A DNA stretch of 64,000 nucleotides. It comes from an uncultured bacterium (lineage in GTDB: Bacteria; Babelota; Babeliae; Babelales; Babelaceae). Where the stretch lies: contig CAWKFG010000004.1 in NCBI GenBank assembly GCA_963848965.1, positions 256,001 to 320,000 of the forward strand, written 5' to 3'. Below are positions 21,001 through 24,000 of the stretch, piece after piece. Numbering within the stretch: the stretch's first letter is position 1; the number at the start of each line of letters is the position of its first letter. A program made the position numbers.

Positions 21001-24000
21001 AAAGGCATCAAGAAATTTTAAGAGCCTATGTACGAAATAGTAATCTCGTTACTATTTATCTTGCTAGGCTGCATTCTAGGCTTTATTAATGGACTTTCTC
21101 TGAGCTATCAGCAGGAGAAAGTCCCGCCTTTTTTATCCAGTCTTTTTTCCCTTATACGACTCTCTCTTATTGCAGCTCTCTTCTTTTATCTGTTGCGCTT
21201 GAACACAATACACTTTATACTTCTTCTTATAAGCTTTACCGGAACTTTTTGGGCAACGATTATACGACTTGTCCGTTAACAAAAAGGTAGTATTTATGGA
21301 AGGTTCTCACCTGTTTGAACAAGAAACGCTATGGTACCCCTTAGCTTTTTTAGGCATTACAAGTCCTCGTACTGCCGTCAACCTTACTACGGTCATGAAT
21401 ACCTGGGTTGCACTTGGCGTTATAGCCCTACTTATTTATGTAGGACGACGCTTTCTTAAAAAAGATAATTCTCTTGGACAGTATTTAGTTTTATCTTTTG
21501 TTCGCAGCTTTATCCAAATGATTGAGCAATCTACAGGAACATTCACCTATCGCTACTTCGCTTTTATTACTTCATTATTTCTCTTTATTATTTGCTGTAA
21601 CTGGGTAGCCCTTATCCCTACTGTAGAAGAACCTACTAAAGACCTTAATACTACTCTCTCACTAGGAATTATCGCATTTCTTTATATTCAGAAAGAGATG
21701 ATTAAAATACATGGTCTTAAAACCTATCTCAAAGACTACTTTGCACCAGTTAATATCTTCTTTCCCTTTAATATAATTGCAGGACTCATTATGCTTCCTT
21801 TAAAAGTACTTGGAGAAGTAGCATCAGTTATTTCTATTTCTTTCCGTCTCTTTGGTAATATTTTTGGAGGAGCAATCATTACCACTATCTTTCAAAAAGG
21901 AGTGTCTGGTTCAGTTATCTTAAACCTTGTAGGAACTCTTTTTGGTATAAATTTGATACTTATTGGCTTCTTTATCCTTTTTGAAGGATTTTTACAAGCA
22001 TTTGTCTTTTCTATACTTTCACTTACAAATATTGCAATGGCAGTTCAAATCGAAGAGCATGAGGAGCACTAATGGCACTTTCTCCATCATTTATTCACCA
22101 TTCTGCAGTAGCGTTAAGCACAGCTATTACTGCGCTTGGTGTGAGCATTGGGCAAGGAATTACTAGTAAGGCAGCCTTTGATGCCATAGATCGACAGCCT
22201 ACGTCTGCAACAGATATTAGTAGAGCTACGCTTTTATCACTTGCTATTGTAGAAACAGGTGCTATTTTAGGCCTTTTAGTGTCATTTCTTCTTTTTTTTC
22301 AGCCAGTAGACGAGCTTCATAAAGCAATTGCTCAGTTGGGTATGGCTCTCTCTACTGCACTGCCCGGTCTCGTTATTGGTATTGCTGCCGCATTACCTGC
22401 ACGAGAGGCACTCATCTCCATAGCACGGCAACCTTTTTTAGGCAAAAAGATCATGAACTTTATGCTCCTTACACAATCTCTTATCCAAACTCCTATGATC
22501 TTTGGTTTTATTATAGCGCTTATTATTCGTACCCGTATAGATGCTATTACAACAGTTGCCCAAGCATTTGTTCTTCTTTCAAGTGGTCTGTCTATAGGTA
22601 TTGGCTGCATAGGGCCTGCAGCTGGTGTAGGCCTGTTTGCAAAAACAGCTTGTCGTAATATTGGAGTTAATCGAGCTGCTTATAACAAGCTTTTTACTTT
22701 TACATTCATTAGCCAAGCTATCATAGAAACACCCGTCATCTTTGCTGCAATAATTTCATTTTTTCTTACCAATAAAGCAACTACACCTATGAGCAATCCT
22801 TTACTAGGAGGTACTCATATGTTTTTTGCAATTACTATGGGTCTTGGAACACTAGGTGCTGGTATAAGCTCTGGAAAAAGCGCAGCAGCCGCATGTAATC
22901 AAATAGCCCTTAATCCTCAAAGCTATAATATGCTTTCTCGTTCAAGTATGATGGCCCAAGGACTTATTGATACGTGTGCTGTCTATGCCTTTATTATAGC
23001 ATTGTGGCTCATACTGCTACCTCTTACCTAGGACTATAAGTCAGATAAAAGTTTATTAAAAACAAAGTCTTTAAAGTTCAACTTGAATTTAATACCAGAT
23101 AGGCTATACTTAATGAAAAACTATATTTTTTACCTGTTAATCAAATAATTATGAAAATAAAAATCATTATAATAAGCACTTTTTTTCTCTTTTCGCTTGT
23201 AGCTATGGAACCACAGCCAAATCCCATCACTTCTAAAGCAACAAGCATTAATCACGCAAATACCTCTTTGACTATGCTTCTTGTTCATCATATAGCACAG
23301 CAGCTTGCATCATTCATATTACATGAGAAAGCCCGAACATTTGTTAAACCGGTACCTTTTTTAGATAGTAAAGCAAGCAGTACTAATGAGAACTTTCAAG
23401 AGCAGCTGAATAAGATAAGAAATATTTATCCTGAACTTTATAATAAAATTCGTCTTATGCTTTCACTTTATATAATTATAAGTAAAGCAACAAAAGACGA
23501 GAAACATGCTCTCCTTTTAACACTCTGGCAAGATAAAAGCAGTCGCTTTATACAGTTACTCATACATGAACTTCTTTCTCATACTTCTTTACAAGAGATA
23601 ACAGAACTTTTTCCATTAGCGCATACCATCGCACCCATACAACCTCCTTTTGCACAAGATAAACTCTCTCTTATGCATGTAGCTTCAATGCTTGATGATG
23701 CTTCTGCTGTTGAGTGCTTACTTTCATTTAATAGCACATCTTATGATAGAACTTCGGTGACAGAAGACACACCATGCCATTATGCAGCCCGCTATAAAAG
23801 CACTACAGTATTTTCTTCCTTGACAACTATTCAGATGACTACAAAAGCTAATAAACAAGGAGTTTACCCACTTACACAAGCTCTTGTAAACAATAATAAA
23901 GAAGGCGCTCTGTTTCTTATGAATCTTCCTGAATTTAAAACAGATCAAGCCCTTATTGACAATGCTTTAGAACATCTTCTGAAGTATGGCAATAATCATG

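Follow-up and report, generated by a model that had tools for sequence, protein, structure and literature searches.

The window analysed here, a 64,000-nucleotide stretch of the genome of a member of the Dependentiae, encodes an F-type ATPase c subunit in which four hairpins are fused into one chain (c4) and whose gene adjoins that of subunit a. This is a real and conserved protein: it occurs across the phylum, is linked to a, stands beside a normal single-hairpin c (single c) retained elsewhere in the genome, and is homologous in architecture to operons of other phyla in which a is followed by a multi-hairpin c and then by a single c. Taking these comparisons together, we consider it probable that c4 is the Dependentiae version of subunit c1 of Acetobacterium woodii, and that it shares a hybrid ring with the single c in an ATP-driven, probably Na+-pumping enzyme, the ring, the ion, and the direction being those that we infer from its relatives and its genomic context.

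Structure and Ion Sites of c4

The c4 gene lies at 22072..23031 of the window on the forward strand, in an open and intact frame of 319 aa with an ATG start. Directly upstream on the same strand is the gene of the Fo subunit a (atpB, 21296..22072; PF00119 ATP-synt_A, E-value 1.5e-35), which contains the motif FRLFGN with the conserved Arg and gives the sole PF00119 match in the whole genome. Within the sequence TAATG, the stop codon of a (TAA) overlaps the start codon of c4 (ATG), and a GAGGAG is found 7 nt 5′ of this ATG. Directly 5′ of a, a very hydrophobic ORF of 83 aa (21028..21279, forward strand) occupies the position that AtpI/AtpZ-type assembly factors have elsewhere; it matched no Pfam family at E ≤ 0.01 and NCBIfam at chance level only. 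Two small membrane ORFs are found in this position in a locus from another phylum (L018).

PF00137 (ATP-synt_C) matches c4 in four stretches, the first at aa 12–74, with an E-value of 5e-37 and 126.4 bits (cut-off 24). A scan of the whole genome with this family returned four matches within one 322-aa open frame, each hairpin exceeding the cut-off, and a fifth in an 88-aa frame at C4:458908-459099 (positions preceded by a contig name count along the whole contig). The top NCBIfam models are those of F0F1 subunit C. The intact frame and the four stretches bear out the four-hairpin fusion proposed in the genome-wide survey's note that was our starting point. Its description of the fold also held: the AlphaFold2 model (pLDDT 96.3, pTM 0.91) consists of eight long helices, and the top Foldseek match in the PDB is 4bem_J (E-value 1.5e-4, TM to target 0.75, 156 columns, 24% identity), all fold matches being ring subunits. 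The top match in sequence is A. woodii c1 (E-value 2.3e-11). As the survey had reported, a homologue search yields 455 proteins at E ≤ 1e-3, and nearly all of the 120 listed are 315–325 aa long.

All four hairpins are read from the forward strand. Hairpin 1 (aa 1–80, 22072..22311) has its ion site at E61 (codon 22252-22254), with Q28 in helix 1 and T62; hairpin 2 (aa 81–160, 22312..22551) has Q139 (codon 22486-22488) in a QTPxIF motif; hairpin 3 (aa 161–238, 22552..22785) has E219 (codon 22726-22728) in an ETPxIF motif; and hairpin 4 (aa 239–319 and stop codon, 22786..23031) has D300 (codon 22969-22971) in a DTxxxY motif. Midway along the outer helix, hairpins 1, 3, and 4 thus have a carboxylate, and hairpin 2 has none. 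This column of residues, first read in the survey, was recovered both when the four hairpins and the single c were aligned with MAFFT and in a phmmer alignment, which places E61 opposite the Glu of A. woodii c2 (4bem_A). Hairpin 1 shows the series Q28..E61-T62 but has L66 at the Tyr position, and it is the only hairpin with the helix-1 Gln, which is replaced by V in hairpin 3 and by S in hairpin 4 in the alignment with the single c. Hairpin 4 is the one most like the single c (34% identity), and single c subunits score highest with the hairpin-4 profile. Because this profile, the most canonical, wins most of the raw best-profile counts, only relative scores by position were used.

Other ATPase Genes in the Genome

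The survey had also noted that a normal single-hairpin c is kept, and we found it ∼180 kb from c4 on the same contig. It is 82 aa long, displays the motif Q..ETS..Y, and heads a separate c-b′-b-delta-alpha cluster (C4:456007-459141), in which delta is recognized by PF00213 and the two b-like ORFs (124 and 157 aa), without Pfam match, are named by position only. Genes for beta and for an 80-aa epsilon are located near C4:671.5-673.3 kb and the gene for gamma on contig C1. All F-type partners of c4 (a, b-like, delta, alpha, gamma, beta, and epsilon) were found, scattered over four places. Epsilon contains only ATP-synt_DE_N (aa 15–76 of 80) and is missing its C-terminal domain, in keeping with the earlier reading. 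A search of sequencing runs gave a sole match, a soil metagenome run with a 0.13 share of words, and no RNA run among those listed, a result that bears on neither expression nor habitat.

Conservation of c4 and Single c in Dependentiae

All 201 Dependentiae genomes searched gave a c4-type match, with a frame of ∼320 aa that is open in all the matches listed, contig-end cases aside. Subunit a is encoded directly 5′ of c4 in 44 of 45 other Dependentiae loci, the 45th of which begins at a contig end. PF00137 was detected in all 81 Dependentiae genomes scanned (five matches in 72, four in 8, and two in one), and a short-frame match (82–118 aa) corresponding to the single c in at least 78 of the 81, as judged from the 150 listed of 394 match rows. 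The single c of 20 other Dependentiae genomes has Q32 in 19, E65 in 20, and Y70 in 19; the complete E[STQ][STQ] motif is missing from six of the 20, and in one more Y70 is replaced by F. Among genomes with both positions listed, c4 and c are never adjacent, and they are at least 23 kb apart in 13 of the 13 genomes in which both lie on one contig among the matches listed.

The E/Q/E/D pattern had been described as (nearly) invariant across Babelales. This description applies to close homologues (118 aligned rows, identity at least ∼48%), in which we counted E61 in 117/118, Q139 in 111/118, E219 in 118/118, and D300 in 113/118, but it does not extend to the whole phylum: across 46 genomes of Dependentiae, which represent 17 families, the site residues of hairpins 1–4 read EQED in 19, EQEE in 6, EMED in 2, and EEEE in 13. 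The c4 tree has two main clades, with and without a carboxylate in hairpin 2. The clade with Q or M in hairpin 2 comprises 27 of 46 rows (SH-aLRT 98) and includes the families with most sampled species, and the Dependentiae with four carboxylates belong to the same order as the EQED forms. The occurrence of EEEE within Dependentiae is established from GTDB genomes. As for metagenomic EEEE proteins, no relative was found for P0253 in genome or metagenome contigs and none for P0233 in metagenome contigs; a third, P0241, whose sole match was a Clostridium oceanicum V/A-type K subunit, was set aside.

Relatives in Other Phyla and Ancestry of the Hairpins

The subunit is not peculiar to Dependentiae: the class is widespread, with 88 loci in at least 12 named phyla. 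In our search of other phyla, 463 stretches matched the pattern, and 324 of these encode a relative. The 88 loci encode c subunits of 2–6 hairpins; the gene immediately before is that of a in 82 of them, and the one immediately after is a single-hairpin c in 82, as in locus L018, whose order is a-c5-c-b′-b-delta-alpha-gamma-beta-epsilon. These subunits often have one carboxylate or none (EQQQQQ, EQQQQ, GQQQ), such strong losses being found in Thermodesulfobacteriota, Hydrogenedentota, Nitrospirota, and others. Our literature searches, whose coverage did not include the hybrid-rotor review of Brandt and Mueller 2015, returned no description of multi-hairpin F-type c subunits from these other phyla.

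In a tree of individual hairpins, based on 78 columns only, the first hairpins of 8 Dependentiae c4 grouped with 11 of 12 first hairpins from other phyla (SH-aLRT 88), and hairpin 2 clustered with the internal hairpins of 5- and 6-hairpin subunits (SH-aLRT 95); position-wise profile scores also liken hairpin 1 to first and hairpin 2 to internal hairpins elsewhere. Hairpins 3 and 4 clustered with the Dependentiae single c and not with the last hairpins of other phyla (SH-aLRT 96), and to judge from these sequence affinities c4 may therefore be only partly homologous to the class. Dependentiae c4 form their own clade (SH-aLRT 100). In the c4 tree, the root falls between the two clades and the second hairpins of the outgroup are mostly Q, so that the EEEE forms may have regained a carboxylate. 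For these reasons, a scenario in which fusion came first and carboxylate loss second was dropped as a firm claim.

Composition of the Ring

A hybrid ring, which we favor, is a live possibility. One (or a few) c4 and several copies of the 82-aa single c would form one c-ring, turning against the sole a subunit of a single F-type ATPase. Hairpin 2, with Q139, would pass a as a blank, like the Gln hairpin of A. woodii c1, and the ring would thus carry one ion fewer than hairpins for each c4. We infer the co-assembly of c4 and c, as well as the number of c4 per ring, mainly from relatives. The only solved one belongs to a mixed ring, that of A. woodii, reported to hold nine single-hairpin c and one c1 (PMC9171764), and many relatives in other phyla have 0–1 carboxylates and could make no working ring alone, which points to mixed rings in the class. 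For Dependentiae, this operon argument is one of analogy, as c4 and c are nowhere side by side. One c4 per ring might also be deduced from the translational overlap with a, a deduction that we rejected as weak since the c4 start has its own GAGGAG.

A complex prediction of c4 with four c reached 0.50 (runs of 0.52, 0.44, and 0.50), the best control reaching 0.01; contacts agree at 93% or more between runs, and partner pLDDT is at least 68. Of 157 solved complexes, 116 attained the mark used, as did 2 of 215 mismatched pairs, and scores of 0.60 or less were obtained for only 18 of the 157 solved complexes and for both mismatches that passed. A like complex (4BEM) has been solved, and the score may reflect this likeness only. 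The prediction speaks weakly for the pairing of c4 with c.

The same data can be read in favor of rings built from c4 only, in which three copies, say, would provide 12 hairpins and 9 carboxylates, with the single c in a second ring or in a minor role, hence two rotor types for one stator. Retaining three of four carboxylates, and all four in 13 of 46 genomes, c4 could work as its own ring; it is also translationally linked to a, and the genes of c4 and c belong to different transcription units wherever both positions are listed. We nevertheless regard this arrangement as unlikely: Dependentiae genomes of 0.8–2.4 Mb in our sample keep both genes almost without exception, the relatives with 0–1 carboxylates, which cannot work alone, adjoin a single c (82/88 loci), and the one relative of solved structure sits in a mixed ring (PMC9171764). 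Far less probable still is that c4 is an assembly scaffold, a stator-side element, or a decaying duplicate rather than a rotating ion carrier. Its place in the ring is deduced and hairpin 1 has L66 where canonical c has Tyr, which leaves some room for such a role, but the ion-site residues and their flanking motifs are strongly conserved in all four hairpins, the ∼320-aa frame is open in all the matches listed (contig ends aside), and the fold matches nothing other than ring subunits.

Direction, Coupling Ion, and Loss of the Carboxylate

In the hybrid ring that we prefer, imported ATP would be hydrolysed and ions, probably Na+, pumped outward. Profile searches of this genome, which is 88.7% complete, detected no membrane pyrophosphatase, Rnf/Nqr, complex-I/Mrp antiporter-like subunit (PF00361), or haem-copper oxidase (COX1), although at this completeness missing pumps may be unassembled. 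The TM6 genomes studied in PMC4776705 are described there as being without an electron transport chain; a pyrophosphatase pump is reported in them, whereas none was found here. As neither a respiratory chain nor another primary ion pump was found, the enzyme should hydrolyse imported ATP. The survey's proposal of an ATP-driven pump is therefore the most likely direction of operation, in view also of the truncated epsilon and of the three TLC-type open frames, whose presence in the genome we confirmed. With regard to the ion, the single c motif Q..ETS..Y fits the Na+ rule E[STQ][STQ]xxY plus a helix-1 Gln (bioRxiv 10.64898/2026.10.01.756066; PMC7911925), and Na+ is probably the coupling ion; Na+ binding at hairpins 3 and 4 of c4 is doubtful because V and S replace the helix-1 Gln. 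A transporter of the sodium:solute symporter family (SSF), of which the genome encodes two, lies in the window at 25356..26816 on the forward strand (PF00474, E-value 1.9e-77) and is a likely user of the ion gradient. The presence of SSF symporters was counted toward Na+.

The survey's note had further tied the loss of the hairpin-2 carboxylate to ATP-importing parasitism, with fewer ions per ATP yielding a steeper gradient. The same thermodynamic reasoning has been applied to the c subunits of V-type enzymes (PMC9171764), and Q or M is fixed in a large clade (27/46 rows, SH-aLRT 98). The link turned out to be weak, however, and we hold such an adaptation to be rather improbable. EEEE is found in 13 of 46 Dependentiae genomes, which are of the same order and show no sign of living differently; if a ring contains one c4, only a single ion per turn is at stake; and far greater losses are seen in homologues from Thermodesulfobacteriota, Hydrogenedentota, and Nitrospirota. 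In addition, the c1 subunits of A. woodii and Clostridium aceticum are read in PMC7911925 as an adaptation of ATP synthesis to low-energy conditions, and the E/Q polarity may run either way, EEEE being a possible regain given the Q of most outgroup second hairpins.

Implications for the Gearing of F-Type Rotors

The number of ion-binding hairpins in a c-ring fixes the ratio of ions per ATP, and on this ratio depends whether a given membrane potential suffices for ATP synthesis, or how steep a gradient the enzyme can pump. To our knowledge, the rule of one hairpin with one site has a single documented exception among F-type rotors, namely c1 with its two hairpins, in A. woodii and close relatives. 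Here, a four-hairpin form is fixed across a phylum of host-dependent bacteria, one site differing between its two main clades, and 3- to 6-hairpin forms with almost no sites occur in many other phyla. If these subunits are built into hybrid rings, the gearing of F-type enzymes would be tunable far more widely than assumed, and EQQQQQ or GQQQ forms could push the ratio well below the lowest ions-per-ATP value known for this type. Ring stoichiometries predicted from single-c sequences would then miss the multi-hairpin c; one stoichiometry-prediction study is described as having left out sequences longer than 250 aa (bioRxiv 10.1101/2024.02.27.582367). Dependentiae would offer a testable model of a membrane energised from imported ATP without respiration.

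Comparison with Known Systems

Multiplied hairpins with partial loss of ion sites are also known from proteolipids of the archaeal A-type and eukaryotic V-type, such as Enterococcus hirae NtpK (2BL2), yeast and mammalian Vo c, and the 13-hairpin c of Methanopyrus kandleri (PMC9171764; bioRxiv 10.64898/2026.10.01.756066). Their fold matches c4 with a TM to target of ∼0.8 over two hairpins. These proteolipids belong to A/V-type enzymes, whereas the partners of c4 are all F-type (a, delta/OSCP, alpha, beta, gamma, and epsilon); V/A-type partners were not seen in this genome, its alpha and beta matches being F-type genes. Identity with a V/A-type K subunit was rejected on the model scores, all far below the cut-offs (NF005124, 53.7 vs. 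127; NF011483, 38.4 vs. 188; TIGR01100, 17.9 vs. 61.45). The N-ATPase c subunit (TIGR03322) is an F-like c with a Na+ motif; c4 scores 85.1 bits with this model, for a cut-off of 130.85, and was not assigned to it. The genome has one a, one alpha, and one beta gene and therefore no second, N-type operon.

Closest to c4 are the c1 subunits of A. woodii (4BEM chain J) and C. aceticum, which have more than one hairpin per chain, follow a directly, and carry Gln in place of the carboxylate in one hairpin (Q..QT), as Q139 does in c4, while a normal single c with the Na+ motif is kept, as here; c1 and the 9:1 ring are described in PMC7911925 and PMC9171764. Compared with A. woodii c1, c4 has four hairpins instead of two and three carboxylates (four in many relatives) instead of one; its gene stands at a distance from those of the single c and the other operon members, hairpin 4 bears Asp, and in the hairpin tree hairpins 3 and 4 fall together with the single c of the organism itself.

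The multi-hairpin c subunits of other phyla (P0192 in L018, and those in L084, L089, and L127) consist of c hairpins only over 240–490 aa, are placed after a like c4, and share its types of first and internal hairpin (E-T/S, then Q-T-P-x-I-F). They differ in having a single c directly 3′, which c4 does not, and most have 0–1 carboxylates, against three or four in Dependentiae c4. We suggest tentatively, and with somewhat less confidence than for the hybrid ring itself, that multi-hairpin c subunits, with 2–6 hairpins and from zero to all carboxylates, are a widespread and overlooked part of bacterial F-type rotors, that a rotor with one such subunit in its ring would be asymmetric and have its ions per turn determined by that subunit, and that c4 would belong to the class as a mosaic, with an N-terminal half of the ancient c1-like type and a C-terminal half derived from the single c of the lineage.

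Gene Structure and Protein Family

The fused c subunit (c4) is encoded at 22072-23031 (+) by a 319-aa ORF in which four stretches match Pfam ATP-synt_C (E 5e-37, 126.4 bits); the fusion described in the genome-wide survey's note is real and robust. Its start overlaps the stop of the Fo a gene (ATG 21296, end 22072, +; Pfam ATP-synt_A, E 1.5e-35) in a TAATG, with GAGGAG 7 nt upstream. The top NCBIfam models for c4 are those of F0F1 subunit C, NF005363 being over its cut-off (72.6 vs 71), and c4 scores far under the cut-offs of V-type K and N-ATPase c models. When the four hairpins were aligned by MAFFT with the single-hairpin c subunit of the same genome (single c), the column of the single c Glu held E61, Q139, E219, and D300 (hereafter EQED, for hairpins 1-4), and identity among the hairpins, and between them and single c, was only 22-34%. 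By phmmer, E61 aligns with the ion-binding Glu of Acetobacterium woodii c2 (4bem_A). AlphaFold2, run on an alignment of 49 rows, models c4 as eight long helices with short loops between them (pLDDT 96.3, pTM 0.91); the model's best Foldseek match in the PDB is the two-hairpin A. woodii c1 chain 4bem_J (E 1.5e-4, TM to target 0.75, 156 columns), followed by the Enterococcus hirae K subunit and eukaryotic Vo proteolipids.

Upstream, ORF reading gives an 83-aa, very hydrophobic frame (21028-21279, +) that starts 7 nt past a folC-like gene and overlaps a TTG-extended frame of a; a family search returned no match for it, and its position would fit an AtpI/AtpZ-like factor for ring assembly. Large ankyrin-repeat proteins adjoin ATPase gene clusters, here at 23151-25271 (+) and also at loci L006 (2319-3380) and L012 (10166-12319); in intracellular bacteria, such proteins are typical candidates for host-directed effectors.

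Conservation and Ion Sites in Dependentiae

A c4-type match was found in all 201 sampled Dependentiae genomes, with open frames of ~300-354 aa among the matches listed; all sampled genomes belong to one GTDB order. In 44 of 45 further loci, c4 is immediately preceded by the a gene; the remaining locus begins at a contig end. PF00137 matches occurred in 81/81 sampled genomes, mostly five each, and a short-frame single-c match in at least 78 of the 81, which bears out the claim that a single c is retained. In 20 other genomes its Q32, E65, and Y70 are conserved in 19, 20, and 19 cases, respectively. Among the matches listed, c4 and single c are never adjacent, and they lie at least 23 kb apart in the 13 genomes with both on one contig.

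The E/Q/E/D pattern had been called (nearly) invariant across Babelales. This holds in 118 close homologues (E61 in 117, Q139 in 111, E219 in 118, and D300 in 113) and fails further out. In a wider alignment of 129 rows (the query and those 128 of the 150 best cluster representatives that are 295-335 aa long), EQED accounts for 67 rows, EQEE for 21, and EEEE for 19; EMED, ELED, and EEED have three rows each, DQED and EQGE two each, and nine other patterns one each. A second set, which joins the window's c4 to c4 proteins from another 45 Dependentiae genomes (17 GTDB families) and is not a random sample because genomes were picked by family, five of them as best matches to an EEEE query, comprises EQED in 19 rows (families f1, f2, f4, f8, f17, and f20), EQEE in six (f3 and f5), EMED in two (f6), EEEE in 13 (f7, f9, f10, f12, and f16), EEED in two (f11), and EEEQ, DESG, EEQE, and EGQE in one each (f7, f9, f12, and f15). 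The odd patterns DESG and EGQE, from genomes G111 (locus L030) and G115 (L054), have two carboxylates each, at positions unlike those of the common forms; c4 sites are therefore labile.

In a maximum likelihood tree of these 46 rows and 12 four-hairpin outgroup proteins of other phyla, Dependentiae c4 forms one clade (SH-aLRT 100) with two groups: one has 19 rows, 17 of which carry Glu at the hairpin-2 site (SH-aLRT 90), and the other has 27, in which that site is Gln or Met (SH-aLRT 98). Because the root lies between the two groups and outgroup second hairpins mostly carry Gln, the tree does not tell Gln loss from Glu regain.

The residue aligned to Q28, in helix 1 of hairpin 1, is Glu in 43 of the 118 close homologues and in families f3, f5, and f20. 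The resulting two-carboxylate E..E arrangement is like that of the single c beside multi-hairpin genes of other phyla, and also like the two-carboxylate Na+ motif to which the title of a Fusobacterium nucleatum paper (PMC3692424) refers.

Multi-Hairpin c Subunits in Other Phyla

Two cluster representatives, P0192 (406 aa) and P0240 (411 aa), are five-hairpin proteins, both E-Q-Q-Q-Q. P0192 stands in an intact operon of a Thermodesulfobacteriota MAG, in the order two small membrane ORFs, a, c5, single c, b', b, delta, alpha, gamma, beta, epsilon; excerpts of PMC7911925 give a matching order for A. woodii and Clostridium aceticum. The four-hairpin protein P0268 (ESSQ) was used to scan one genome per species; of 463 pattern matches, 324 encode relatives. 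We examined 88 loci, namely L018-L025 and the best 80 of these 324 relatives (L075-L154). A hairpin profile counted two hairpins per stop-to-stop frame in six loci, three in 28, four in 39, five in nine, and six in six, a few frames being cut by contig ends. An a-like ORF lies directly upstream in 82/88 loci and a single-hairpin c directly downstream in 82/88. Multi-hairpin c subunits of two to six hairpins between a and single c thus occur in at least 12 named phyla; the hosts include Hydrogenedentota, Nitrospirota, Margulisiibacteriota, Coatesiibacteriota, Thermodesulfobacteriota (with the cultured Dethiosulfatarculus sandiegensis), Bacillota (with Cellulosilyticum ruminicola), Verrucomicrobiota, Planctomycetota, Cloacimonadota, Bdellovibrionota, and records labelled Myxococcota or Pseudomonadota.

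These subunits have strongly depleted site patterns, several of them confirmed by eye (EQQQQQ, EQQQQ, EQQQ, EQQ, EQ, GQEQ, and GQQQ). The first three keep one carboxylate, and GQQQ, from Hydrogenedentota and Nitrospirota records, keeps none; in the Nitrospirales protein of locus L084, all outer helices are free of Asp and Glu, and a single c with E..ESTGIY comes after it. If there were one multi-hairpin subunit per ring, ions per ATP could fall far below those of any described F-type enzyme.

Longer proteins were also seen. P0216 (968 aa) has ~12 tandem c hairpins with a Glu in each (ALVESAAIYGL-type motif) and is unusually Trp-rich; the type is found in 12 cluster members (P0269-P0279 with P0216) from NCBI, ENA, and Logan sources, and would supply a whole ring from one gene. 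P0263 and P0280 (1139-1147 aa, ~14 c hairpins), from Promethearchaeota and Hodarchaeota (Asgard) MAGs, are single-gene rotor rings comparable to the 13-hairpin c reported from Methanopyrus kandleri.

Relationships of the Individual Hairpins

Profiles of the four Dependentiae hairpins were scored by position against the hairpins of other phyla. The hairpin-1 profile scored best on first hairpins (46-66 bits vs 39-53 elsewhere), that of hairpin 2 on internal hairpins, and that of hairpin 4 on last hairpins and single c. In a 99-row hairpin tree, whose resolution is limited by its 78 columns, 11 of the 12 first hairpins from other phyla cluster with hairpin 1 (SH-aLRT 88). Hairpin 2 joins internal hairpins from proteins that have five or six (SH-aLRT 95), and hairpins 3 and 4 join Dependentiae single c (SH-aLRT 96). 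These similarities suggest that c4 is a mosaic, with a c1-like N-terminal half and a C-terminal half derived from, or homogenized with, the lineage's own c; such a tie would account for the carboxylates kept by hairpins 3 and 4.

Ring Composition, Direction, and Coupling Ion

The genome (1.73 Mb in five contigs, 88.7% complete) has one a gene and five PF00137 matches, of which c4 accounts for four and an 88-aa frame for the fifth. The 82-aa single c, two b-like ORFs (without Pfam match and named by position only), delta (OSCP), and alpha lie at C4:456007-459141, beta and epsilon (80 aa) ~213 kb farther on in the same contig, and gamma on contig C1. A third ATP-synt_ab match (C2:51004-51624, 93.7 bits, 431-aa frame), located away from alpha and beta, probably belongs to another RecA-like ATPase, for example, Rho or a secretion ATPase.

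We infer that c4 and single c would assemble into one hybrid ring, given the architecture of c4, its four conserved site motifs and linkage to a, the universal single c, and the shared a-multi-c-c layout. Moreover, carboxylate-free relatives cannot work alone, and the sole solved relative, that of A. woodii, is a 9:1 mixed ring (PMC9171764, excerpts). Predicted as a complex, c4 and four copies of c scored 0.50 against 0.01 for the best control, with at least 93% of contacts shared between runs and a partner pLDDT of at least 68. The mark for such scores was passed by 116/157 solved complexes and 2/215 mismatched pairs, scores of 0.60 or less being those of only 18 of the 157 and of both mismatches that passed. 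The prediction weakly favors co-assembly, and may show likeness only because a like complex is already solved.

The enzyme would pump ions at the expense of ATP, the mode proposed earlier and one we judge likely, because we found no other pumps, three TLC-type transporters are present (C4 and C1), and epsilon is short, consisting of its N-terminal beta-sandwich domain only. Searches of this 88.7%-complete genome for membrane pyrophosphatase, Rnf/Nqr, complex-I/Mrp antiporter-like subunits, and haem-copper oxidase found none, control genomes being matched for each family. According to excerpts of PMC4776705, the TM6 genomes studied have no electron transport chain, and their ATP synthase may hydrolyse ATP to keep the gradient up. 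The same source reports a membrane pyrophosphatase in every TM6 genome studied, yet PF03030 has no match here; the gene was either lost in this lineage or lies within the unassembled 11%. Na+ coupling is suggested by the Q..ETS..Y motif of single c and by two sodium:solute symporter genes, one 2.3 kb downstream of c4, and is uncertain at hairpins 3 and 4 because both are without the helix-1 Gln.

If each ring contained one c4, its Gln hairpin would cut the count by just one ion per turn, a small effect. Because the EEEE clade lacks this effect, fusion as such must have another purpose; speculatively, ring nucleation, size control, or rotor asymmetry. The proposed tie between carboxylate loss and energy parasitism is thus too narrow, given the EEEE clade in Dependentiae and the depleted sites in other phyla.

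Comparison with Known c Subunits

The literature searched held no description of the Dependentiae fused form, nor of any F-type c with three or more hairpins, though the review of Brandt and Mueller (2015) may list longer forms; excerpts of PMC4776705 are silent on c subunit fusion. In the portions consulted, a recent evolutionary study treats A. woodii as an F-type exception (bioRxiv 10.64898/2026.10.01.756066), a ring-size study filtered out c sequences over 250 aa (bioRxiv 10.1101/2024.02.27.582367), and Rnf-bearing anaerobes are said often to have several atpE copies (PMC13343851, citing Brandt and Mueller 2015). The survey's note was right on the fused subunit, the kept single c, and the likely pump mode, and c4 belongs to the same kind as A. 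woodii c1, inside a family much wider than has been recognized.
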